From: Cyclobacteriaceae bacterium
GTDB taxonomy: Bacteria > Bacteroidota > Bacteroidia > Cytophagales > Cyclobacteriaceae
Length of the DNA stretch: 64,000 nt
Assembly (NCBI GenBank): GCA_043750575.1
Contig: JAYVBH010000009.1
Span: 48,664 to 112,663, forward strand
Direction of reading: 5' to 3'
A model generated the notes under the pieces. It was given only the letters and a program-made list of their open reading frames with translations, did no database searches and was not told the origin of the DNA. Made by a program: the position numbers and the translations under genes. This document shows, piece after piece, positions 21,863-34,707 of this stretch (position 1 is its first letter; each line of letters starts with the position of its first letter).

Positions 21863-21920
21863 TAAGCGGTTTCCTTCTTGGGTTTATTTTGATAAATTGC
21901 TACAAAAAAGGGCTTTATTG

Positions 21921-22820
21921 ATGAAACGAGTCTTTCTGGTTGGGTTATTCGCTCTTGCTCTGGTTCCGGAATTGGTTTCGGCGCAGAGTTTTTATGCCAT
22001 GCGGAGGTCAAGGTCCTTGATGTTTGTGGGAGGAATAGGCACTTCCAGCTATTTGGGAGAACTCTCCAATCCAGGCGATTACCTTCAAGCCAAGCCCACT
22101 GTCAACCTGGGACTTCAGTACTACTTCACCCGAAACATCGCCATAAGGGGAGATGTGACTTGGTTTCAGCTAACCGGGTCAGATGCAAAGTCCAACGACG
22201 TGGAATCAGGGAGAAAGGGCCGCAATCTGTCATTCAGTTCTAACAACTTTGAAATGAGTGTAGTCGGGATCTATAACCTCTATCCCAACGGAAGGACCTT
22301 TTATCAGAGACCTGCCTTCAATGTTTACGGATTCGCAGGTATTGGCTTGTGTTATTTCAACCCAACCACCGATTATCAAGGAACAACTTACTCCTTACCT
22401 GAACTTCAAACTGAATTAGTTAGCTATAGCACATTTACACTCGTTATTCCGATGGGTCTGGGGGTTAGATTTAAGCTCGGACCTTTTATGAACCTTTCGT
22501 TTGAAGGAGGCTACCGACTAACATTTACAGACTACCTGGATGATGTTAGTACGATCCACAATGACGCATCATTATTTTCCAATCCCATTTCCGCTGCATT
22601 ATCAGATCGTCGTGGAGAGCTTACTCCGCCAGAGCCGCTCAAGGTTACCGGAGATATCCGCGGTAACCCAAAAACCAATGACGGATATATTCTATACAAT
22701 GTGAAGCTGGAATATTTCTTGCCCATTAATTTCTTTCAGGGCGGCGGTGGTCCCAAAAAGACAAAGCACAACAAGAAGGCTTTCTACCGATACAACAAGC
22801 GTGGCGGGTTGAGGAAGTAA
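21921..22820 (+). CDS. Outer-membrane beta-barrel protein (DUF6089/PorT-like)
   Basis: Signal ending VSA-Q; SSYLGEL, RNLSFSS, EGGYRLTFTDYLDDVS, RGNPKTNDGY. Confidence 0.75.
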   Translation: MKRVFLVGLFALALVPELVSAQSFYAMRRSRSLMFVGGIGTSSYLGELSNPGDYLQAKPTVNLGLQYYFTRNIAIRGDVTWFQLTGSDAKSNDVESGRKGRNLSFSSNNFEMSVVGIYNLYPNGRTFYQRPAFNVYGFAGIGLCYFNPTTDYQGTTYSLPELQTELVSYSTFTLVIPMGLGVRFKLGPFMNLSFEGGYRLTFTDYLDDVSTIHNDASLFSNPISAALSDRRGELTPPEPLKVTGDIRGNPKTNDGYILYNVKLEYFLPINFFQGGGGPKKTKHNKKAFYRYNKRGGLRK

Positions 22821-22969: not shown

Positions 22970-24892
22970 CTAGCTCAACTCGCTGAATCGCTGGGTGTCG
23001 AGCACTTCGTAGCGGCTGTAGTTGCTTTTGTACTCGGGGACGAGTTCCTTCATTAAAGCCACCATTTTCAGCTCGTTGCGGTCGTTGACAAGGTCGTGGA
23101 ACAGATCCACATACCGGTTGATCTCATCGTAGGAGTACTCCTGGACGCGGGCGATAAGGATCTTCTTGTGGTGCGTGGGGATGGTGTTCTCCTGGTTCGT
23201 GAGCAGTTCCTCAAACAACTTCTCTCCTTCTCTTAACCCCGTGAAATGAATCTCAATGTCGCGGTCGGGCTCGAGACCTGACAGCCAGATCATCTTCTTG
23301 GCGAGGTCAAGAATCTTCATGGACTTACCCATGTCAAAAATGAATATCTCACCCCCCTGCCCCATTGTACCGGCTTCAAGCACTAGCTGGCAAGCCTCTG
23401 GGATGGTCATGAAGAAACGCGTGATCTCCGGGTGCGTAACCGTTATCGGACCCCCTGCCTCAATCTGTTTCTTAAACAATGGGATAACCGAGCCGTTGGA
23501 TCCCAACACATTTCCAAAGCGAGTTGTGACAAAAGCCGTCCGGTGAGCCTTTCCGGTCGTGTAGTTATTTAAAGACTGAACATAGATTTCGGCGATGCGC
23601 TTTGAACAGCCCATCACATTGGTGGGGTTCACCGCCTTATCGGTGGAAATCATTACAAATTTCTGCACACCCGTTTCGGCAGAAATATCAGCCAGAATCT
23701 TGGTGCCAAGGATATTGCAGGCTACTGCCTCTGATGGATTGCTTTCCATCATCGGGACGTGCTTGTAGGCGGCAGCATGGTACACCAAATCCGGCTTCTG
23801 CTCTCTGAATATCGCGGCAATTCTCTCCTTGTTTGTGATGTCAACAAGAAAGATATTGATCTTGGCAGACGGCGCCAGGGCAACCATTTCCCGCTCGAGT
23901 TCATACAAAGCAGACTCTGCCTGATCAATCGCAATCACAGACTCCGGGTGATACTGAATGACCTGGCGGACCAATTCGCGGCCGATAGAACCAGCAGCCC
24001 CAGTAATACATATTCGCTTTCCCTTCAGGTCCCTTTCTACATTCTCTTTATTCAAACGGATGGCCTCCCTGCCCAGTAAGTCCTCAATGTTGATTTCCTT
24101 AATCTGGTTAAAGCTCAATTCACCTTTGGCCCACCGGTCAATTGGCGGTATCAGGCGTACACGGATCTGATGCTGAATACAAAGCTCTACCAGTTCATTC
24201 CGGCGTTCCGGGTCGATGTCCTTGGCCGCAATAACCAATTCGTCGAACGACCTATCTTTCAGCAAGGCTTCCAGTTGGACCTTGCCTGCATTATAAATCA
24301 TAACCCCGTCAAGCACTTTGCCGATCTTATCCGTATTGTCCTCCAGGAAGCCCATCACCCGCATTCGCTTTGAGGACTCGACGACATGACGGGTAATCAT
24401 TCCTGTATTGCCAGCCCCAAAAATTATAACCCTTGACCGCTTTAGCATTTGATCCTTGTAATAGGAGAAGATATACTTCACGAGGAGGCGATAATTGAAG
24501 AGCAAAAGAAATGACCCCAGGAAGCTAATCAATACGACGGAATACGGAACTGCGTATTGAAGCTTGTTGTAGGCATAGAAAAGATTGACCGATACAACCA
24601 GGGCCAGGTTCAACACGACCATAAACAATATCCTGGCTCCATCTTGTAAACCCGTATAGCGAATGATGCCTTTATAGCTTCCCGTGAGGAGGATGGAGAC
24701 TAGTCCGCAGAGCGAATAGATGAGTACACCCCGCTCGAGCCATTGCCCGGTGAGGTCGTTAAATGAAAAATTAAAGCGAAGTAGAAATCCCAGGAAAACT
24801 GAAAACGAAATGAAGGCAAGGTCTATGAAGATAATTACCCAGCGGGGCAATATGCGCAGATTGCGAACCAGATCAATCCACCAGCGGATCAC
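22970..24892 (-). CDS. Membrane-anchored UDP-GlcNAc 4,6-dehydratase (CapD/WbpM/PglF family)
   Basis: N-terminal TM helices, IFGAG, DLLGR, TGAAGSIG, HAAAYKHVP, ISTDKAVNPTNVMG, RFGNVLGSNGSV, GLREGEKLFEEL. Confidence 0.95.
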   Translation of the reverse strand: MIRWWIDLVRNLRILPRWVIIFIDLAFISFSVFLGFLLRFNFSFNDLTGQWLERGVLIYSLCGLVSILLTGSYKGIIRYTGLQDGARILFMVVLNLALVVSVNLFYAYNKLQYAVPYSVVLISFLGSFLLLFNYRLLVKYIFSYYKDQMLKRSRVIIFGAGNTGMITRHVVESSKRMRVMGFLEDNTDKIGKVLDGVMIYNAGKVQLEALLKDRSFDELVIAAKDIDPERRNELVELCIQHQIRVRLIPPIDRWAKGELSFNQIKEINIEDLLGREAIRLNKENVERDLKGKRICITGAAGSIGRELVRQVIQYHPESVIAIDQAESALYELEREMVALAPSAKINIFLVDITNKERIAAIFREQKPDLVYHAAAYKHVPMMESNPSEAVACNILGTKILADISAETGVQKFVMISTDKAVNPTNVMGCSKRIAEIYVQSLNNYTTGKAHRTAFVTTRFGNVLGSNGSVIPLFKKQIEAGGPITVTHPEITRFFMTIPEACQLVLEAGTMGQGGEIFIFDMGKSMKILDLAKKMIWLSGLEPDRDIEIHFTGLREGEKLFEELLTNQENTIPTHHKKILIARVQEYSYDEINRYVDLFHDLVNDRNELKMVALMKELVPEYKSNYSRYEVLDTQRFSELS

Positions 24893-25107
24893 TATTCTTT
24901 ATTTGATTTGTCCTTGCCAAGCATTCGCTTCAAACCAAGTAGTACTCCGCCCCCGATAAGAATTTCAATTCCCGTAATGGGCACGGCTGGTGGACAAGGT
25001 GGCTTAGGGCACGGCTTTCCGCCACCCCCCGGCTGAGCAGAACCCAAGAAAAAACTCAAGCAAAAAAATGCGGTAAGAAATAAAAGCCTCAAGAATTTCA
25101 TCTTCAT
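24892..25107 (-). CDS. PID-CTERM-like exosortase-target microprotein
   Basis: Signal peptide, QPGGGGKPCPKPPCPPA, VPITG, hydrophobic IEILIGGGVLLGL, basic KRMLGKDK tail; stop overlaps capD start. Confidence 0.75.
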   Translation of the reverse strand: MKMKFLRLLFLTAFFCLSFFLGSAQPGGGGKPCPKPPCPPAVPITGIEILIGGGVLLGLKRMLGKDKSNKE

Positions 25108-25112
25108 TACGC

Positions 25113-28100
25113 TCAATCTTTGATAATGCGAACTACGTCAACCTTGCTTCCGCGCTCAACTCGCAGGAAGTAAAAACCTGAACTTTCCTTATTGAAAGAA
25201 TACTCTCCTTTGTACCGGGAACCTGATGATTCAAAGTTGACAGGTCCGACGTATGCACCCATGAGGTTATACATCGATCCCACCGGCTTGGCATCAGCGT
25301 CCACACTAACCCGTAAGGTTTCTTTAACGGGGTTAGGATAGATCGTTATCCCCGCTGCACCAGAATTTGAAGGTTCAATGGCGGTTACTGCAAATACCTT
25401 GCTATCCGTAACGGTACATCCGTTCAATGTGACATCCAATCGGTATACACCACTTTGAACAGCCTGTAACGTATTGTTGGTAGCCCCAGGAATCAGGTTG
25501 CCATCGAGATACCACTGATTGCCCGTCTGGTAATTTGATTGAAGTGTAAACGCGTTAACAATCTCAATGACTGCAGGGTCCAAATTCGAGACATTCGCCA
25601 TCACTTCAACCCAAGGTCCTTCGCAGCCAAGGATATTGACAGCGGCAACATAATATGCTTTGCTTGAAGTCAGCTCGGGCGTTGTGTAGATAGCCAGTAT
25701 TTCATTCGGAATTGGGCTTACCGCTTCCAGCGAATCATACCAGTTGTAATGTCCATCCGCCGGAGCACCTGAAGCACTTATAACTGCATGCCCGGTACCG
25801 CAGGATGTGCCTGCTGTAACGGTGACTGCCGCAGGGACAGCAGCATAGTTGATTGATACCAGAAGTGTGGATTCCAGGTTTGTGCAATACCTGTTCGCTG
25901 CCTTTACTTGAAATTGGTTTTGTCCTGCTGTAATCTGATCTGCCGGGATATACAACCGTAATGGACCATCTTCTCCTTGTGTAGGTGCTACGACCACTGC
26001 GCCGGTTGATGGCTTAATAAGTGAATAGTCGTAATCTGAAGAACTGTTCGTCACATTGACCAATCCGGTTCCGGTATCACAAACGCCTGGAGTCTCGCTG
26101 GCGATTGTCACAAGGCCCCCTTCATAGGTAAACGCCAGACTAAAACGATCCGAGCCGAACGTATTCGGGTCAGTCTCATCCACAGAGAACGGATAATTTG
26201 GATTCAACCGAACATCGATGAGCGCATTTGTAAAATTATCCCTGAATTGAATTTTCATCGCCGAACTCATCGATTCAAACTCGGTGAAACTCAACTGATA
26301 CGTTCCTGTTGTGACATCACTGACGTCTAACGGCACCTGGGCAGCGCATGCCGACAAAGGCATTGCATTAATGGAGTATTTCTCGTTTGCCGAGATGGTT
26401 GACAGGTTCAGGTACCAATACGGGTTTCTGAATTTACGTGCGTCATATTTCGAATCAAACGCGATGGTAGCTGAGTCTGAAAAATAGATCACCGCTTCAT
26501 CTGTCAAATTATCCCTGGACAATGCAATCCGGATCAAGTCGGTAGGGCCTGATTGGCGGAAGAAGGTAGTTTGCGTTCCGGCAACTTTAACGGTTTCCCT
26601 AATGGTTAAAACCGGAGCTGCAGCATTTGCTTTCACCCAGAAGCCCTGACCTGTGGCGATGAATCGACTTCCGCCGTTCGTCCCAACGCCTGCAACAAAG
26701 GATGCAAATACGGGATTTGCCGTACTGTAGTCTGACATGTAAATGGCATCGTCCATGTTGGTTTTGGTCCAACCGGCAGAGAGCCAATCAATCGTGGAGG
26801 CATAGGGGTTCCCAACTAAATTCCAGCCATCGTTGGCGAGCACGGTAGGAGCAGACGATGTAAAGGTTACTGGCATAGACAGTGTTCCACTGTTAACTGT
26901 CCCTGAAACTGCCCATTGCGAATTAAGATTCGTGCTTACGGGAACGTCGCTACCAAAAATGAAAATCGAATAACCACGACCCGGTGACAATGCTTCTGAC
27001 GCATCTGCGACTGGAAAGGCCACATACCCGTTCTCCAAATCGCCCGTAACCAGTTCACTATAACTATACATGGATGGATCACCTGTTTGTCCTGGTATAA
27101 AGTCGGTCTGCGGAAAAGATCCGATAACGGGAAGCTCCTGTTGTATGTCGGCAACAGTCGTGGCGACAGGCGATGAAATATTTCGCCAAACCTGGAAGTT
27201 ATACAAGCCAACCCCCTGACGATTCATGTACCGTTGTACGGAAACATTACCTGTCACTTGGCCTGCTGCAACACTCATCTGCGCAATGCTGGCATCCTGC
27301 GTCGTAAAGGTACCCGAGGTCACCGGTCCTGTGGAAAGCAATGTCAACACTCTGGCGCCCCCAGCTCCATCCGCATCGAAAGTCGAGTTTGCTGCAGTAG
27401 TCATATTTAGGATACCGCCCAAATCGATGCCCACTGTATTCTCATTAATCAAATCCGGATTAGCTGTAACGTTTCCATTCACGGTAAGATTATTCAACGT
27501 AATCTTTGCACTACCATTGATCGTCTTCGTCAAGGTCGTCGATACGATGTTCACCAAACCGGTGCCTGCAGTAAATGTGCCGTCGTTGGTCAAGGTTGAG
27601 TTGATGTTCAGCGTTGCTGGGGCGATGAACGTACCAGTTGCATCGACTACAAAATTGAAGAACTGAGGAGAGGCTCCTGTCATGGTGATCGTAAAGCCTG
27701 CGCCAACACGAACCGTTCCGGTGCTCGTGAATGTGCCGGGTGTGAACGTTCCTGTAAACGCCAAAGTCATTCCGTTGCTTGCGCCGGCGGTCGGCGCGTT
27801 GAATGTACCGGCATTGGAGAACCCACCAACTGAAACATTGTTTGCTCCGGAAGTGAAGATGCGGCCTGTGGTCTGGATTGTAAAAATACCTGAAACATTC
27901 AGTGGTTGACCCACTGCCAACGTGACTGTAGTTGCATTATTAGTATTTACGGTCAAGTTCTTGATCGCACCCAAAGTTGGAATCTCAAATGCCGTAGTCT
28001 TTGTAGCACCCGTATAGGTTAGGTTCCATGGTCCACCACCTGGACTTGACGTAGTAATTGTGCCCGCAGCCCGAGAAATCGTTGCTCCATCCGCAAGCGT

Positions 28101-30839
28101 AAGCAAATTACCAGTGATTGCCATTGTACCAGCCGTAAGCGTAATCACGCTCGAAGCGTTCGGCATATCCACGGCCGTTGCAATCGACAGTGTTCCAGCA
28201 GTAAGGGTGAGGTTGTTGTTTATCGTCTGAGCCGAATTAACCGACAGCGTATTGGCGCTCTTGTTTACAGTGAAGTTGAAGAACCCGGCATCCGTACCCG
28301 TAATGGCCTGCGCGTTTCCTCCGCTAAAGTTAACCGTATTAACTCCTGGTGTGAACGTGAATTGGTTGAAAAAGTCTCCTTGAATATTCAGTGTCGTTGG
28401 GGAGACCAGTTCAGCAGCCGGGTTTATGGTGATATTCCGGAAATTTGTAGTGGATGCAGCTGTTCCCAGGATTGTCTGGTCAGCCGTGCCGCCAAATACA
28501 ACCGTTCCCGCGTTGTTTGTAAACGTTCCGTCGATGGTCAGGTCATCGTTGTTCAGACCACCGTTAAGCGTCAGGGTTGAGCTCGGTGCTGTAAACGTTC
28601 CAGCGGTAATTGTTAGAAAAGCTGTTGAGATTGCGTTCGCACCTGCATTGAATGTACCTGAAGTTTGTGTGAAGCCACCTACACCAATAACCAGTATCTG
28701 ATCGAGTGTAATGGTACTGGTATTGCTTGCCGTAAGACTAACCAAGCTACCAGAGACCGGAATCTCAAAACCAGTTGGATTAATTGCTGTAGTACCCGAA
28801 TAGATCAGGTTCCATGGACCGCCGGCAGGGCTTGATGTGGTGATTGATCCGGCAGAATTCAGGGTGATCGTTGGTACCGGTGCATTGCCCATACTAAGAG
28901 CGCTCCCTGTAATACTCAACTGCCCGTTGAGAACAGTAAGTGCATTGGATACATTCAGGGCACTTGAAATCGTAACTGAAAGGCCTGCATTGGACTTGTT
29001 AAGAATCAGGTCCTGAAGGGTATTGTTAAGTGGGTCAAAGTTTAATGGTGAGGCTAAGGCTGTACTCCCATTGAGTGTTAGCACAGATCCGCCACTGGAG
29101 GCCAGCTGACCGCCCGCCGAAGAATAGTTACCTCCGGCAGCACCAACATTCCCCAAAGTCAAGTTCTGACCGTCGAATGACAATGTCCCGCTGGTAAGCG
29201 TAGTTGTAGAGGTGATAAGTACATCATTGCCAAACTGAACAGCTCCTGCACCGCCCGTACGGTTCATTGTAAAATTTCGAATAGTGATGGCCCCAGCAGG
29301 GAATGGGAAAACTCCAAAGTCTCCAACGCCATTAACAGTCAGATCAGAATTTGCGCCCGAAAATGAAACTGCGGCTCCACCGGTATTCAGGATATCCGTA
29401 CTCAAGACCAACCCCCTTGCTGTTGCGGTGCTTGCGACACTAAGATTGCCGTTTGTAAGCTCAAGGATTCCAGGGATAGTTAGAATTGTTGCCGCAGAAT
29501 TACCCACTGTCGTTGTGTTAAAAGTAACACCAGCCGCGTTGTCAATTTCTGTTGTCACGCCGACCGTTGTAGGATGACCGCTGCCAATGAATTGAGCGCC
29601 CGTGCCGGCGTAGACCACACGACTGCTCGCCCCAAATGTTCTCGTTCCATTCGTCATTACGTTACCTGCCGTACGACCGGTTATCAGCGCGCCTGTTGTA
29701 TTGAGAGACCCCAGGCGAATTGTTCCATTAAGTGTAAAAGTCCCAGTCGCTGTGGCACTTCCCAATGGAGATTCATTGAGAACATCCAAAGTAGATGTAG
29801 AGGAAATGGTGAAATCAATCGTTAGTGTAATTGAGCCTGTGTTGGTGAACGTTTGAGTGCCGCTACCCACAAAATTTACAGCCCCTCTCCCATTCCCTGT
29901 TTCAGAAAGCGTACCGGCAGTCAAAGAAAAATTCCCGGTAAGGTTCATTGTACCTGTGTTGCCATTCCCTCCACTCAAAAGCAGCAGTCCCCCGGTTGCA
30001 TTCATATCAAAACCGCCAGTTACATTCAACGTGTAGGATCCGGTTGTTTTTAAAGGTGAGCCAGTAGCATTGGTTGACTGATAGTTGAAATTACCACCAA
30101 CGTTAATTGTTGCGCCAGTACCGGTCGTCACAAACGCGACCCTTGAGTTACCTGAAATCAAAAGGTCACCTGTAATCGCAATAACCAGGGCAGTAGTCGT
30201 AGCAAACTGCAACTGATTCCCATTCGTAGAACTTACACTAAGATTCCCAGTCACTGTCGTCAGGTTTCCAGCCAAATTGATCGTCGCGCTCTGTGTCGTT
30301 GCGTTCCAGGTGAAGTCATGGAACGATTGAGTAAGGCCAGTTGGAACAGTATTCGTGATTCCGGCAATGTTACATTCAGACCCGGTAATCCACGTGGCTG
30401 GAGGAACAATTCCTCCGTTCCGGTTATGTATGAAGTGGGATAAATTATTGAATTGAAAATTAGCTGCTGCGGGATTTGTAATAGCGCCCGTTCCTGTCAC
30501 GGTCACTGTGCCATTGACGACCAAAGCATTGGTATTATTCGCCAAGGTGAGCGTTGTGCTGCTAACTGTGAGGGTCGCTGTTGCACCTACTGTAGTACCA
30601 TCGATGGTTACTGGGCCGGTTACAGTTACTACATCGTTACCAATTATCTGAATGTCGACGCTGTTCGCTGACGTCGGGACATTTAACGTTGCAAGGTATG
30701 GCTGAATACCATCAGTACTTTCAAGCCAAGTGGTATTCACACTCCAGGTACCACCCCCAGCTCCATTTGTTTGAAAGAACTGCGCTGAGGCAGTGCTCCC
30801 GATCAACATGAAAACTACCAATGCCCCTATTTTACCCAT
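25113..30839 (-). CDS. 1908-aa T9SS type A cargo protein (Thr/Gly/Asn-rich beta-repeat adhesin-like)
   Basis: Signal ending ASA-Q, long T/G/N-rich repeats, GWNLVGNPY module, Ig-like YYVAA module, CTD IYPNPV...GFYFLRV...RIIKD. Confidence 0.9.
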   Translation of the reverse strand: MGKIGALVVFMLIGSTASAQFFQTNGAGGGTWSVNTTWLESTDGIQPYLATLNVPTSANSVDIQIIGNDVVTVTGPVTIDGTTVGATATLTVSSTTLTLANNTNALVVNGTVTVTGTGAITNPAAANFQFNNLSHFIHNRNGGIVPPATWITGSECNIAGITNTVPTGLTQSFHDFTWNATTQSATINLAGNLTTVTGNLSVSSTNGNQLQFATTTALVIAITGDLLISGNSRVAFVTTGTGATINVGGNFNYQSTNATGSPLKTTGSYTLNVTGGFDMNATGGLLLLSGGNGNTGTMNLTGNFSLTAGTLSETGNGRGAVNFVGSGTQTFTNTGSITLTIDFTISSTSTLDVLNESPLGSATATGTFTLNGTIRLGSLNTTGALITGRTAGNVMTNGTRTFGASSRVVYAGTGAQFIGSGHPTTVGVTTEIDNAAGVTFNTTTVGNSAATILTIPGILELTNGNLSVASTATARGLVLSTDILNTGGAAVSFSGANSDLTVNGVGDFGVFPFPAGAITIRNFTMNRTGGAGAVQFGNDVLITSTTTLTSGTLSFDGQNLTLGNVGAAGGNYSSAGGQLASSGGSVLTLNGSTALASPLNFDPLNNTLQDLILNKSNAGLSVTISSALNVSNALTVLNGQLSITGSALSMGNAPVPTITLNSAGSITTSSPAGGPWNLIYSGTTAINPTGFEIPVSGSLVSLTASNTSTITLDQILVIGVGGFTQTSGTFNAGANAISTAFLTITAGTFTAPSSTLTLNGGLNNDDLTIDGTFTNNAGTVVFGGTADQTILGTAASTTNFRNITINPAAELVSPTTLNIQGDFFNQFTFTPGVNTVNFSGGNAQAITGTDAGFFNFTVNKSANTLSVNSAQTINNNLTLTAGTLSIATAVDMPNASSVITLTAGTMAITGNLLTLADGATISRAAGTITTSSPGGGPWNLTYTGATKTTAFEIPTLGAIKNLTVNTNNATTVTLAVGQPLNVSGIFTIQTTGRIFTSGANNVSVGGFSNAGTFNAPTAGASNGMTLAFTGTFTPGTFTSTGTVRVGAGFTITMTGASPQFFNFVVDATGTFIAPATLNINSTLTNDGTFTAGTGLVNIVSTTLTKTINGSAKITLNNLTVNGNVTANPDLINENTVGIDLGGILNMTTAANSTFDADGAGGARVLTLLSTGPVTSGTFTTQDASIAQMSVAAGQVTGNVSVQRYMNRQGVGLYNFQVWRNISSPVATTVADIQQELPVIGSFPQTDFIPGQTGDPSMYSYSELVTGDLENGYVAFPVADASEALSPGRGYSIFIFGSDVPVSTNLNSQWAVSGTVNSGTLSMPVTFTSSAPTVLANDGWNLVGNPYASTIDWLSAGWTKTNMDDAIYMSDYSTANPVFASFVAGVGTNGGSRFIATGQGFWVKANAAAPVLTIRETVKVAGTQTTFFRQSGPTDLIRIALSRDNLTDEAVIYFSDSATIAFDSKYDARKFRNPYWYLNLSTISANEKYSINAMPLSACAAQVPLDVSDVTTGTYQLSFTEFESMSSAMKIQFRDNFTNALIDVRLNPNYPFSVDETDPNTFGSDRFSLAFTYEGGLVTIASETPGVCDTGTGLVNVTNSSSDYDYSLIKPSTGAVVVAPTQGEDGPLRLYIPADQITAGQNQFQVKAANRYCTNLESTLLVSINYAAVPAAVTVTAGTSCGTGHAVISASGAPADGHYNWYDSLEAVSPIPNEILAIYTTPELTSSKAYYVAAVNILGCEGPWVEVMANVSNLDPAVIEIVNAFTLQSNYQTGNQWYLDGNLIPGATNNTLQAVQSGVYRLDVTLNGCTVTDSKVFAVTAIEPSNSGAAGITIYPNPVKETLRVSVDADAKPVGSMYNLMGAYVGPVNFESSGSRYKGEYSFNKESSGFYFLRVERGSKVDVVRIIKD

Positions 30840-31207: not shown

Positions 31208-31621
31208 TTAGTCCCTCTTCCTGAAGCGCTCTTGAAAATAAACCGCCGGAATAAGGAGCAGCATGAGCGTAGGATTGACAATGAGGCGGTGGAATTGGGA
31301 AAGCAACGGCGATGAAATCTCGGATGTCCCTTCCCATGATAGTTTTACTATGAAGTACAAGGGTAACATTACCAAGGCATCAATAACCTGTATACCCAGC
31401 GCAAGGCGAGTTACTGTTGGCTTGTTGAATAACCCAATAATTACCAAAATCATCCCTGCATCATTCAATAAGACGCGGCATGTCTTGCGGATCACAAAGC
31501 CCTTGACCTCAGAAATATCCCCAAAGCCAAAATCCAACTGCTCCTGAAAAAGATAGGTGACTACGATAATAGCCAGGCCGCTGGAGATCATCACCGCGTG
31601 CCTGAAATCAATCTTGACCAT
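31208..31621 (-). CDS. Exosortase F system-associated membrane protein
   Basis: Likely start MVKIDF (31621) overlapping xrtF; RVLLND, FHRLIVNPTLMLLLIPA motifs; 3-4 TM segments. Confidence 0.8.
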   Translation of the reverse strand: MVKIDFRHAVMISSGLAIIVVTYLFQEQLDFGFGDISEVKGFVIRKTCRVLLNDAGMILVIIGLFNKPTVTRLALGIQVIDALVMLPLYFIVKLSWEGTSEISSPLLSQFHRLIVNPTLMLLLIPAVYFQERFRKRD

Positions 31622-32147
31622 TGCGCTTGCTTGACACCATCCGGATCCAGCCGTACCAAATGGCAAATACAAAAACATAAATGAATCCGGTGAAGAGGTA
31701 CTTGTGAAAGAAGTAGAGCTGGTCAGGGAAATGCAAGGCAACGCCATACAATAATCCTATTCGCGCTAGGTTTAGAAAATGAATTGCGGGAATACCCAGT
31801 AGGACAAACCAAATCAATAGCCTGCCCGGTCCACGAAAAGCAAGAAGGAAGCTGACATACACGATGACGACATTCAACCCATTGCAGCCCTCGAATACAT
31901 AGATCAGGTTCTGCTGATCGTTCGAAATGGCGATGTACTCGGCCACATCCGATCTATACTGCGCGATGCTTGGATCAAAGAAGCCGAGGCACCAAACTAC
32001 CTGACGGGCAATCCATTGCGTAAAAGGATCAGAGGTCGGCGCGTAGTGGTTGACAAACAACCCGTAGACTGAATTCAGGAGGATATAAACCGCAATAAAC
32101 ACCCCGATGAACCGGAGGGCCTGCTTGTTTTCAGTCAGCAGTTTCAC
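31608..32147 (-). CDS. xrtF: Exosortase family protein XrtF
   Basis: VFEGCNGLNV (Cys), NLARI (Arg), YFFHKYLF (His), YVFVFAIW. Confidence 0.9.
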   Translation of the reverse strand: MKLLTENKQALRFIGVFIAVYILLNSVYGLFVNHYAPTSDPFTQWIARQVVWCLGFFDPSIAQYRSDVAEYIAISNDQQNLIYVFEGCNGLNVVIVYVSFLLAFRGPGRLLIWFVLLGIPAIHFLNLARIGLLYGVALHFPDQLYFFHKYLFTGFIYVFVFAIWYGWIRMVSSKRNGQD

Positions 32148-32782
32148 ACGGATATCTTTTTGGCCGGTACGCCGGCAACTGTAGTGTCTGCCTCAACCGA
32201 TTCCAACACAACCGCGCCCGCACCTACCACGGCGTTCTTGCCGATGGAAAGATTCTGGAGGGTCCTCGCCCCTGTTCCGATCAACACACATTCGCCAATG
32301 GCGACGTTGCCTGAAATACTGCATGACGGCATGAGCGTGGAAAATTTCCCGATGCGCACGTCATGGCCAACGGTACATGAAAGATTAACAATCACAAAGT
32401 CACCAAGGTGAATACCTGTCGTCAAAATCACGCCGGCTGTGATAATGCTTCCTTTGCCAAAACTATTCCCAATGGCTCCCGTGTTTGCCAACGGATGAAT
32501 CAACAGTGGAAAATGAACGTGCTTGTTGCTGATCGAGGAAACTAACGTCCTCCGAACCTGCGGATCCGCGATGGCCACAACAATATCCAGTGAAGTTCCC
32601 CATGTGTTGAGTTCCGCCAATCCGCCAAGGACAGGTAAATCATCGACGAGTTTTCCATGTATTACGCCATCATCGAAAAAGCCCAGGAGGTTCCATTGGT
32701 CCTGGACCTGGTTGATCTGCTGCACCAGCCAGGCAGTCTCGCGACCGAAGCCGCCGGCACCGTAGATGGCGAGGTCTTTCAT
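32144..32782 (-). CDS. PglD/NeuD-family sugar N-acetyltransferase
   Basis: IYGAGGFGRE, FFDD, LIHP, hexapeptide repeats with GHDV, AGVPAK. Confidence 0.92.
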   Translation of the reverse strand: MKDLAIYGAGGFGRETAWLVQQINQVQDQWNLLGFFDDGVIHGKLVDDLPVLGGLAELNTWGTSLDIVVAIADPQVRRTLVSSISNKHVHFPLLIHPLANTGAIGNSFGKGSIITAGVILTTGIHLGDFVIVNLSCTVGHDVRIGKFSTLMPSCSISGNVAIGECVLIGTGARTLQNLSIGKNAVVGAGAVVLESVEADTTVAGVPAKKISV

Positions 32783-32899: not shown

Positions 32900-33997
32900 T
32901 CAGCGACGGACTACTATGTCGACAATTTGTTTTATGTCCTCAAGGCTAAGCTCACCTCCAGACGGCAAGCACAAGCCCTGATCAAACAACTTTTCAGCAA
33001 CCGTCCCGCCAAAGGCAAGAGCGTCCTTAAAAAGCGGCTGATGATGCATCGGCTTCCACTGTCTCCTTCCCTCGATATTCGCGCGAGCCAAGCGTTCGAG
33101 AACCTCTCCGGGATGTACATCCTGAGGAAGAATGCAGGCGGGTAACCACGGTTGAAAATCAACCTCCGGTCCTGCCGCCTGGAAACGCAACCCAAACTTT
33201 TCACCGAGTGAGCGATAGTGCTCATAAATCTCTTTCCTTAACCGAAGCAACTCTGCCATCCGCGTCAACTGCAACAACCCATACGCAGCGATCAGCGGGC
33301 TCATGCGATAGTTGTGTCCTACTTCCTCATGCTGGTAGTATTGAACCGCAGAGCGGGCGTGCGATGCCAGGTACCTGGCCTTATCAATGATATCCGGATT
33401 ACCTGAGACAAGTGCCCCTCCGCCAAATGCGGTCACTCCCTTGTTGCTATTGAAAGACAAGACTCCGACATCGCCCAGTGTTCCTGTCCATTTCCCACGG
33501 AACCTGGATCCAAAAGATTCCGCGGCATCCTCGATAAGGGGGATGCCCCATTTTTTCGCAATCGGCAAAATCAAATCCATACGTGCGGGCATTCCGTAAT
33601 TATGCACCACAACAATGGCTCCCACCTTTTTTCCCAAGCTACAGATTTGGGTGATGCCCTGTTCCAGCAACACGGGATCCATATTCCACGTAAGTTCCTC
33701 ACTGTCAATCAAAACCGGATGAGCACCCAGGTACAGTATTGGACTTACGGAAGCTACATAGGCAAAGGTTGGGGCGATAACAAAATCACCCGGCTGAACA
33801 CCAACAACACGCAACGCAAGGTGCATCGCCGCTGTTCCCGATTGCACCGCTGTTACATTAGAGCATCCTACTTCGGTGCCTAACCGTTGCTCAAAGTCAT
33901 GCACGATTTCCTGATGGTCCCGACCTTGATATGATTTCAGAACCGCAGACAAGCCATCAGCATCGATTTCATTGTAGGATAGCGGAGTGCGGGTCAT
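32900..33997 (-). CDS. DegT/DnrJ/EryC1/StrS aminotransferase (PglE-like)
   Basis: SGTAAMHLAL, DSEELTWNMDP, IEDAAESFG, SFNSNK, GHNYRMSP. Confidence 0.92.
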   Translation of the reverse strand: MTRTPLSYNEIDADGLSAVLKSYQGRDHQEIVHDFEQRLGTEVGCSNVTAVQSGTAAMHLALRVVGVQPGDFVIAPTFAYVASVSPILYLGAHPVLIDSEELTWNMDPVLLEQGITQICSLGKKVGAIVVVHNYGMPARMDLILPIAKKWGIPLIEDAAESFGSRFRGKWTGTLGDVGVLSFNSNKGVTAFGGGALVSGNPDIIDKARYLASHARSAVQYYQHEEVGHNYRMSPLIAAYGLLQLTRMAELLRLRKEIYEHYRSLGEKFGLRFQAAGPEVDFQPWLPACILPQDVHPGEVLERLARANIEGRRQWKPMHHQPLFKDALAFGGTVAEKLFDQGLCLPSGGELSLEDIKQIVDIVVRR

Positions 33998-34001
33998 GGG
34001 G

Positions 34002-34099
34002 GGAGTTAGGAGTTGGGTATTGGGTGTTGGGCGTTCGGTGTTGGGAGTTCGGTGTTCGGTGTTCGGTGTTCGGTGTTGGGTATTAGGCGTTAGGTGTTA
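34002..34099. repeat. 14 in-phase heptamers GGNRTTV filling the intergenic gap
   Basis: ggagtta ggagttg ggtattg ggtgttg ggcgttc ggtgttg ggagttc ggtgttc ggtgttc ggtgttc ggtgttg ggtatta ggcgtta ggtgtta. Confidence 0.92.
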
Positions 34100-34707
34100 G
34101 GATTTCCGCGGAAGGGTTGTTCCGTGAGTGAGATGTCTTTTCGGAAGGATAAAAGTAGCACAATGGTTTTAAGAAGAATGCGCAGGTCGAGGATGAAAGA
34201 TTGGTTATTCACGTATTCAACATCGAGCTCGAACTTCTTCTGCCATGAAATGCCATGCCGGCCATTCACCTGCGCCCAGCCGGTGATGCCGGGCTTCATG
34301 GTGTGCCTCCTTCGTTGCTCCTCCGAGTAAAGCGGAAGGTACTCGAGCGGTAACGGCCGGGGACCCACGACAGACATATCCCCCGTGAGAACATTCCAGA
34401 GCTGAGGTAGTTCATCGAGGCTTGTGGTGCGCAGAAAGGAGCCCATCCAGAATTTCCGCTCAGGCAACGGCAGGCTATCATCAGTCGCCAACGTTCTGAA
34501 CTTGTACAACGTGAACGGCTGACCATCCTTGCCCGTTCGCAGCTGTTTGAAGATCATTGGGAAATGGCGTGTGATCAAAAAGGCAAAAGCCGTAGCCAGG
34601 AATAATGGCGACAAGAGGATGATACCCATTGCGGCAGCTATCCGGTCAACGATTGGTTTAACGAAAGACACATATATTCCCGGCATCTGGCTCGAGGGCA
34701 ATGGCAT
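34090..34707 (-). CDS. Priming sugar transferase (PglC-like phosphoglycosyl transferase)
   Basis: KFRTL, LRTTSLDELPQLWNVL.GDMSVVGPRP, KPGITGWAQVNGR; alternative start 34686. Confidence 0.93.
   Translation of the reverse strand: MPLPSSQMPGIYVSFVKPIVDRIAAAMGIILLSPLFLATAFAFLITRHFPMIFKQLRTGKDGQPFTLYKFRTLATDDSLPLPERKFWMGSFLRTTSLDELPQLWNVLTGDMSVVGPRPLPLEYLPLYSEEQRRRHTMKPGITGWAQVNGRHGISWQKKFELDVEYVNNQSFILDLRILLKTIVLLLSFRKDISLTEQPFRGNPNT

Follow-up and report, generated by a model that had tools for sequence, protein, structure and literature searches.

A tiny gene on the minus strand of a 64,000-nt stretch of Cyclobacteriaceae bacterium DNA (GCA_043750575.1, contig JAYVBH010000009.1, positions 48,664 to 112,663; this whole stretch is the window referred to below) is a real gene under protein-level selection. 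As read from its sequence, its 71-residue product is on balance probably a dedicated substrate of the exosortase XrtF, coupled to the surface display of an adhesin exported by a type IX secretion system (T9SS).

Exosortase F is widespread in Bacteroidota, and the model that defines XrtF, TIGR04128, names no target. A genetic study found exosortase F to be needed for biofilm formation and surface colonization, again without naming a target (mBio 2024); the substrates of XrtF have been stated to be unknown and are expected to bear little resemblance to PEP-CTERM (PMC10936215). The family described here, ~60-70 residues that are almost nothing but sorting signal, offers a concrete and easily testable candidate. 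That it is invariably found together with a giant T9SS type-A cargo also hints at a functional connection, hitherto overlooked, between exosortases and type IX secretion, which may bear on how T9SS adhesins are anchored in non-Porphyromonas Bacteroidota, and a substrate this small would be an ideal tool for defining the exosortase cleavage site and acceptor by mass spectrometry.

The tiny gene and its product

The gene and the parts of its product are as follows.

24892..25107, minus: tiny gene, 71 aa + stop; ATG start, with an alternative in-frame TTG start at 25116
25036..25107, minus: signal peptide, residues 1-24 (MKMKFLR, hydrophobic core, GSA before Q), read by eye; the predicted signal peptidase I (SPase I) site would give an N-terminal Gln
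24985..25035, minus: linker QPGGGGKPCPKPPCPPA, residues 25-41, low-complexity Pro/Gly with a clade-specific Cys pair
24964..24984, minus: VPITGIE, residues 42-48, a conserved motif at which recognition or cleavage presumably takes place
24931..24969, minus: hydrophobic GxxxG helix IEILIGGGVLLGL, residues 47-59
24895..24930, minus: basic cytoplasmic tail KRMLGKDKSNKE, residues 60-71, K/R-rich

The precursor comprises the signal peptide MKMKFLRLLFLTAFFCLSFFLGSA and the mature part QPGGGGKPCPKPPCPPAVPITGIEILIGGGVLLGLKRMLGKDKSNKE, the predicted cut falling between the two; over its 71 aa the layout is thus MKMKFLRLLFLTAFFCLSFFLGSA, the linker QPGGGGKPCPKPPCPPA, VPITG, IEILIGGGVLLGL and KRMLGKDKSNKE. 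An initial annotation of this DNA had described an open reading frame (ORF) of ~70 aa with a signal peptide, VPITG, a transmembrane helix and a basic tail, starting 5 nt past the stop codon of a T9SS cargo gene and ending in an overlap with the start of capD. Every listed element is present and both junctions are confirmed: the cargo stop codon occupies 25113-25115, leaving 5 nt (25108-25112) before the ATG of the tiny gene, and the TAG stop (24892-24894) has a single base, 24892, in common with the GTG start of the capD-like gene (TAGTG). These stop/start arrangements with cargo and capD fit 1:1 co-production. A terminator scan of the cargo/tiny/capD junctions found no site there, and its counts did not rise above those of shuffled sequences.

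A word-index search returned six homologues of 65-72 aa, whose signal peptides have diverged and whose mature parts are near-identical. A profile search over 1.84 billion representatives reached at least 411 clusters of relatives (50% identity, E<=1e-3); the 150 matches listed are all 46-94 aa and align over their full length. With a profile of the mature region the count is at least 1,873 clusters (90% identity), and the 120 matches listed are all 41-79 aa. In NCBI and JGI the relatives go by the name “hypothetical protein”, and one has received the automatic UniProt label “PEP-CTERM sorting domain-containing protein”. Pairwise comparison of 74 distinct DNA versions of a 22-codon core gave mean differences of 0.34, 0.23 and 0.68 for the first, second and third codon positions, respectively; the third positions are saturated, and every synonymous codon is in use for the invariant P, G, E and L. 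This pattern indicates selection on the protein in that frame, and the position of the gene is retained across dozens of diverged loci.

The same data bear on the idea that the tiny ORF has no function of its own, being spurious, serving just to tune capD translation as a leader or coupling ORF, or giving rise to a secreted signalling peptide. Its very small size, the overlap of its stop with the capD start and its “hypothetical” status in databases would all suit such an ORF, but the purifying selection acts at the amino-acid level with third positions saturated, more than 1,800 clusters have the same architecture, the gene is retained where capD is absent downstream, and a coupling ORF would not conserve a signal peptide and a membrane anchor. 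This explanation is already largely refuted, and we give it hardly any credence.

A protein made of predicted sorting signals

Family statistics were compiled over 156 relatives for the C-terminal part and 154 for the signal peptide and linker. Conservation is confined to the two ends of the protein, a signal peptide ending in A/QP (the slash marking the predicted cut) and the VPI(T/S)GIE-helix-KK tail. At the N-terminal end, the predicted signal-peptidase site reads [A/G/S]-Q in 152 of the 154 relatives, after a signal peptide of median length 23 aa; the Q that follows the signal peptide is invariant, and at least 90% of relatives have a Pro after it. The initial annotation held a Gln in this place to be typical of Bacteroidota, in agreement with the Bacteroidetes Q-rule (PMC5837995): in this phylum most SPase I substrates are left with an N-terminal Gln that then cyclises to pyroglutamate (PMC5837995, PMC10653852).

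The C-terminal ~32 residues follow the pattern [V]-P-I-[T/S]-G-I-E-x-L-x-x-x-G-x-x-x-G-x-[KR]-[KR], then a basic tail. In the motif, P is present in all 156 relatives, I in 140, T or S in 141, G in 154 and E in 145; the two Gly positions of the helix (GxxxG) are occupied in 156/156 and 155/156. The linker between these ends, taken as the stretch between Q and the motif Pro, is 10-44 aa long with 15 aa as the median, and it is dominated by P (36%), G (20%) and D (8%), a typical version reading QPGDPGGDPD. The two Cys that the initial annotation had noted in the peptide are indeed there in the window protein (CPKPPC), but they are no family feature: linker Cys occur in 39 of the 154 relatives, paired in 38 of those 39, which makes CPKPPC a feature of a clade. 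A central functional role for the Cys pair was rejected, as three quarters of the relatives have no Cys. Read in this way, the protein is essentially a signal peptide plus a tripartite C-terminal signal and leaves no space for a folded domain.

Exosortases, polytopic Cys enzymes whose genes lie in polysaccharide clusters, are thought to cut motif-helix-basic signals (Haft 2006 and 2012, both through PMC10936215). The exosortase-type layout is found here in full, with a signal peptide, a Pro motif, a hydrophobic helix and a K/R cluster at the extreme C-terminus; the initial annotation had recognised the motif-helix-tail order as that of exosortase targets, and the order is conserved in the 156 relatives as well as in the window protein. 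Proteins of larger size with this sorting signal are absent from 0.82 Mb of loci plus the window, and all matches listed in the two profile searches (150 and 120) are 41-94 aa; a signal carried by no large protein fits a dedicated target. One apparent larger carrier, P0155, was rejected as a contig-edge gene call in the canonical position.

Scored against NCBIfam release 20 and Pfam, the window protein has no match even at E<=10, and so none to PID_CTERM or LPXTG_anchor; the search with PID- and PEP-CTERM hidden Markov models (HMMs) proposed in the initial annotation is thus negative for this protein. Among 100 relatives, PID_CTERM (NF046080 / PF28310, curated cut-off 26 bits) is the closest curated model, matched by 57 with a best E-value of 3.3e-6. 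When eleven relatives were scored singly on it, P0148 alone exceeded the cut-off, the others reaching 13-23 bits or nothing. All remaining matches of the 100 relatives are likewise to sorting-signal models: PFE-CTERM, PVV-CTERM, LPXTG and Heimdall-CTERM. The earlier description of the protein as PID-CTERM-like is apt, PID_CTERM being the nearest curated model, although the window protein taken by itself does not match that model. Since the window protein has no match and most relatives score below threshold, the family is, on these model scores, a close yet distinct relative of PID-CTERM and not a member of it.

P0148, a distant profile match with the motif VPLDGG, is a genuine PID-CTERM protein of identical tiny architecture, and its surroundings connect that architecture to an exosortase. 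On a 1.3-kb contig (L062), the first ORF has an end that weakly resembles the T9SS C-terminal domain (CTD; 15 bits); the 71-aa P0148 (42.5 bits) begins 2 nt after it, an XrtX gene (178 bits, cut-off 170) follows 16 nt later, and the last ORF, cut by the contig end, encodes a membrane protein that scores 15 bits on the XrtX-associated model (cut-off 75). A PID-CTERM gene adjoining XrtX ties the tiny architecture independently to an exosortase of the XrtF/XrtX clade.

The model scores also bear on whether the protein is a substrate of some other transpeptidase (a sortase-like enzyme, another membrane-proximal Cys protease, or PorU after relocation), with xrtF a mere neighbour. Sortase-like processing is conceivable because VPITG, with the helix and the basic tail behind it, fits the pattern [LV]-P-x-T-G; the V/P/I/T-S/G statistics of the motif, weak LPXTG_anchor matches in 9 of the 100 relatives and the fact that the tiny gene travels with a T9SS cargo point the same way. 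Yet PID_CTERM matches outnumber those to LPXTG by 57 to 9, the exosortase is the sole protease-type gene conserved in the block, and no sortase is found among the genes of that block (the window itself was not scanned exhaustively for sortases). PorU, for its part, works at the outer membrane, where its substrates are folded CTDs and not helices of the inner membrane (PMC7468200). We consider an enzyme other than XrtF very improbable.

One distant relative stands apart. P0100, a 77-aa profile match (L148, 10001-10234), has the motif VPFSGLG and the tail IWKISQRAK and is isolated: there is neither a cargo upstream of it nor an exosortase gene inside 10 kb. It may represent a subfamily of its own or be a mere look-alike.

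Genomic context: cargo and exosortase

The tiny-gene block forms the 3' end of a minus-strand polysaccharide cluster of more than 30 kb. The genes around the tiny gene in the window are as follows.

25113..30839, minus: T9SS type-A cargo, a giant surface protein of 1908 aa, Ig_7 + Por_Secre_tail (PF18962 30.2 bits, TIGR04183 24.5 bits, both above cut-off)
22970..24892, minus: CapD/PglF-like membrane 4,6-dehydratase, 640 aa, GTG start; its place downstream of the tiny gene is conserved
31608..32147, minus: exosortase XrtF, 179 aa (TIGR04128 108.6 bits, cut-off 90; XrtX 101 bits, cut-off 170)
31208..31621, minus: putative XrtF-associated membrane protein, ~137 aa from an internal ATG (TIGR04127 32.9 bits, cut-off 35)
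32144..32782, minus: NeuD/PglD-type sugar N-acetyltransferase (TIGR03570 193.9 bits)
32900..33997, minus: DegT/LegC/PglE-type sugar aminotransferase
34090..34707, minus: small PglC-type phosphoglycosyl transferase (Bac_transf)
21897..22820, plus: PorG-like/DUF6089 outer-membrane beta-barrel, convergent with capD (tail to tail; NF052316 T9SS_PorG 103.9 bits, cut-off 130)

By model the window exosortase is XrtF: it scores above the XrtF cut-off and below that of XrtX and keeps the catalytic Cys/Arg/His. The residues C88, N89, R129 and H148 are invariant across 22 sequences, and 21 of 22 operon exosortases match the XrtF model at E<=2e-25, a threshold chosen to approximate its 90-bit cut-off, with Cys/Arg/His in all. 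The gene for the XrtF-associated protein follows xrtF in all loci. The initial annotation was right in naming the exosortase XrtF (108.6 bits against 90); in calling it a neighbour it was less exact, for xrtF is not adjacent to the tiny gene and lies ~6.5 kb off, beyond the cargo gene.

A scan of one genome per species yielded 53 loci, all from metagenome-assembled genomes (MAGs) of Cytophagales (Ohtaekwangia, Chryseolinea, Chryseosolibacter, Cyclobacteriaceae, Roseivirgaceae and Flammeovirgaceae), with the recurrent order NeuD, XrtF, associated protein, aminotransferase, cargo, tiny gene, CapD and, set off beside it, the PorG-like gene. Co-occurrence with xrtF was judged per locus, within 10 kb, for 79 unique tiny genes, 26 of which have flanks that are too short. 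The initial annotation had tied the gene to xrtF, and homologues do lie near xrtF: it is found within 10 kb upstream, at a median of 6.7 kb, for 51 of the 53 determinable tiny genes. Two tiny genes with at least 9 kb of upstream sequence have no xrtF there; in L050 the XrtF-associated gene is cut by the locus edge. Starting instead from xrtF, a survey of 80 metagenome loci included 26 with enough downstream sequence, and the tiny gene is present in 22 of these. The operon is retained also in a lineage whose motif has drifted to VPFEGLG.

The association with the cargo is closer still. The gene directly upstream ends in Pfam Por_Secre_tail (PF18962, the type-A CTD) in 73 of 74 cases, the distance from cargo end to tiny start is -4 to +10 nt in most loci, and the upstream cargos are homologous over their C-terminal ~900 residues. 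Within these cargos, residues ~1000-1700 (25740-27842, minus strand, in the window) are conserved across all partners of tiny genes and have no Pfam domain, and a PDB sequence search with the conserved middle of the cargo gave no meaningful match; on this comparison the segment is an uncharacterised region specific to the tiny-partner cargo family. At one locus (L008, 9974-15382), two tiny genes in tandem (70 and 59 aa) precede a second Ig_7/CTD cargo of 1634 aa, all three lying downstream of the first cargo; this arrangement is a local duplication of the cargo-tiny module.

Two further features of the neighbourhood deserve mention. Upstream of the XrtF block, window positions 34000-57000 (minus strand) hold uninterrupted polysaccharide genes: a WecA-like GT4, an epimerase, a GT2, a 575-aa carbamoyltransferase, an MBOAT protein, GT1s and two ORFs without a Pfam match. 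On the other side, the PorG-like/DUF6089 barrel stays beside capD even where the outer flanks have changed (L002, L145, L146, L150 and others), and it may be part of the tiny-gene system.

Processing by XrtF: a proposed pathway and the evidence against it

If the tiny protein is a dedicated XrtF substrate, its life would begin with Sec export and cleavage by signal peptidase I after GSA, exposing an N-terminal Gln-Pro whose Gln would probably be cyclised to pyroglutamate, as in most exported proteins of Bacteroidota. The GxxxG helix and the basic tail would hold the precursor in the inner membrane, with VPITGIE at the periplasmic face. XrtF, a polytopic Cys/Arg/His enzyme, and its partner membrane protein could then recognise the motif-helix-tail signal; XrtF would cut at or near VPITG, removing the helix and tail, and transfer the ~20-residue Pro-rich peptide to an envelope acceptor. 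The processed peptide would most likely be a stoichiometric component of adhesin surface display or anchoring, a role suggested by its translational coupling to the giant T9SS adhesin and its embedding among PglF/E/D/C-type amino-sugar genes: the stop/start coupling suggests a requirement for the peptide that scales with the amount of cargo, and the interleaved sugar genes suggest an amino-sugar acceptor. We infer XrtF cleavage, the cleavage site, pyroglutamylation, the acceptor and the anchoring role from sequence.

Several observations weigh against this pathway. To our knowledge, exosortase cleavage of PID-type signals has been demonstrated nowhere, and the window protein itself fails the PID_CTERM model. 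A search of sequencing runs found the window only in DNA runs (sediment metagenomes) and in no RNA run. Four xrtF loci (L093, L109, L112 and L128), from two XrtF subclades and several of them marine, have no tiny gene within 9-10 kb; they keep NeuD, XrtF and the associated protein and have no aminotransferase, cargo, tiny gene or CapD downstream. In these and other xrtF loci that have no cargo block, neither a search at E<=50 nor a loose regular expression found a tiny gene or any other ORF with a Pro motif, helix and basic tail, and the target of XrtF in these four loci, if any, is located elsewhere. Conversely, a cargo-tiny pair can occur away from xrtF. A lineage represented by GCA_025933435.1 and metagenomes (L056-58) has a 2140-aa T9SS cargo and then a tiny gene (motif VPITGIEYLIAAGAAFGAKK, weak on PID_CTERM); an AMP-binding enzyme gene and priA flank the pair, and none of the genes within 10 kb encodes an exosortase. 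In two MAGs that have the canonical locus (L040, L054) a second pair lies elsewhere (L022, 44-6648; L023, 154-3783). In such cases XrtF would have to act in trans. Given the CTD at the end of 73 of 74 upstream genes and these separate pairs, the tightest genomic partner of the tiny gene is the upstream T9SS type-A cargo, not xrtF. The opposite-strand neighbour in L022 is PorE-like (PD40 + CarboxypepD_reg + OmpA).

Finally, part of the synteny may be phylogenetic inertia, as sucC and lolD are likewise conserved neighbours in many loci. Cultured Shiella aurantiaca (locus L145, tiny protein WP_320005183.1) retains the block from PglD to DUF6089 although other genes stand in the places of sucC and lolD; conservation amid different outer flanks argues that inertia alone does not account for it, and a purely inertial explanation is weakened accordingly.

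The pairs that lack a nearby xrtF are also what one would expect if the tiny protein were not a substrate at all and instead remained uncleaved, as a single-pass inner-membrane microprotein whose VPITGIE-GxxxG helix is a helix-helix docking surface. It would then be a permanent subunit or regulator of the CapD/PglF-like dehydratase, of XrtF and its partner, or of some periplasmic stage at which the giant cargo is exported. The GxxxG pattern is classically associated with helix packing, the gene is coupled translationally to the cargo and usually to capD, which flank it, and its scores on the sorting-signal model are below threshold. On the other hand, the conserved elements are exactly those of exosortase/sortase signals, the only HMM matches are to sorting-signal models, the periplasmic part is 10-44 residues of variable, low-complexity sequence, and the PID-CTERM sibling adjoins XrtX, with no capD there. 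A permanent membrane subunit thus seems rather unlikely, if a serious contender, and a dedicated XrtF substrate stays the favoured reading.

Comparison with known systems

The LPXTG/sortase A system resembles the tiny protein in its [LV]-P-x-T-G motif (VPITG, 24964-24978), hydrophobic helix and basic tail at the C-terminus of a Sec substrate; it differs in that the host here is Gram-negative, the conserved block has no sortase, and an invariant Glu stands two residues after the Gly. The PEP-CTERM/XrtA (EpsH) system likewise combines a signal peptide with a C-terminal motif-helix-Arg/Lys signal and an enzyme encoded in polysaccharide clusters. Genomes with PEP-CTERM, however, have many substrates of varied size, whereas the present system has a single tiny candidate substrate (in some genomes two) that has no PEP motif and no match to a PEP-CTERM model. 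A precedent for such economy is XrtJ/PExPT-CTERM, whose curated target is one tiny protein described by a whole-protein model of 57 positions (TIGR04200, “targ_of_XrtJ”), showing that single tiny targets are an accepted pattern. Its motif and enzyme subtype are other than those described here, and we know of no link between XrtJ and T9SS.

XrtF of Flavobacterium johnsoniae (Fjoh_1448/Fjoh_1449; TIGR04128/TIGR04127) belongs by HMM to the same enzyme family and has a partner protein to which the putative partner in the window, at 32.9 bits against the TIGR04127 cut-off of 35, may correspond. It is linked genetically, through identical phenotypes, to T9SS attachment components and a DegT aminotransferase (PMC10936215): mutants in xrtF and the partner gene have the biofilm and colonisation defects seen in porU, porZ and DegT aminotransferase mutants, and the identical phenotype row comprises xrtF, Fjoh_1449, porU, porZ, the DegT gene Fjoh_0334 and Fjoh_0651. 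The last is described as “hypothetical, no COG” and was complemented by a 434-bp fragment that includes its promoter (PMC10936215), so its product must be tiny. Its primer-derived C-terminus is ...VIYRNKIKKASI*, and the deletion junction joins ...QIRKKIYF to IKKASI, basic at both ends; an approximate, X-padded query built from these primer termini only returned no candidates. Fjoh_0651 may be the Flavobacterium counterpart of the tiny family.

In Porphyromonas gingivalis and Tannerella forsythia, a peptide bond through Ser or Gly joins the C-terminus of type-A cargo to a glycolipid's modified amino sugar (PMC7468200). The seryl/glycyl “linking sugar” (Wbp/Vim) system resembles the arrangement described here in that a peptide, amino-sugar genes and a type-A cargo are co-encoded. 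The analogy is functional only, with no Vim/Wbp homology: an encoded peptide of ~20 residues replaces a single amino acid, and the corresponding linkage would be blocked if the N-terminus were pyroglutamate. A bolder form of the XrtF-substrate reading, which we regard as quite unlikely, would make the tiny protein a gene-encoded, consumable linker: XrtF would attach it by its new C-terminus to an amino sugar (of the bacillosamine type, made by the PglF/E/D/C-like genes of the operon) on a glycolipid or lipopolysaccharide, and the T9SS attachment complex, PorU/PorZ/PorV, would then join the adhesin to it. This would explain the 1:1 translational coupling to the cargo gene and the phenotype common in F. 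johnsoniae to xrtF, porU, porZ, the DegT aminotransferase gene and a tiny hypothetical gene. If true, exosortase F would build a cell-surface anchor for T9SS cargo in Cytophagales, and perhaps in Flavobacteriia, as a counterpart of the seryl/glycyl linking sugar of Porphyromonas and Tannerella.

The XrtX/PID-CTERM system (NF046081, NF046080, NF046082; PF28310) also has a small exosortase of ~170-180 aa with an associated membrane protein and a tiny target (P0148) that has an AQ-ending signal peptide, a Pro-rich linker, P-[IL]-x-G, a Gly-rich helix and a basic tail; the window exosortase reaches 101 bits on XrtX, and relatives of the tiny protein match PID_CTERM weakly. The term “PID-CTERM” does not occur in the literature searched, and on that showing the XrtX system is curated from genomes only. 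The two systems differ in the motif, VPI(T/S)GIE here against P-I/L-D-G-G in PID-CTERM, whose cut-off the window protein fails to reach, and in the enzyme, which is above the cut-off of XrtF, not XrtX, and separated from the tiny gene by a giant cargo gene. Set beside these systems, an exosortase with its cognate signal is an arrangement of a known kind; its link to the T9SS is possibly new.

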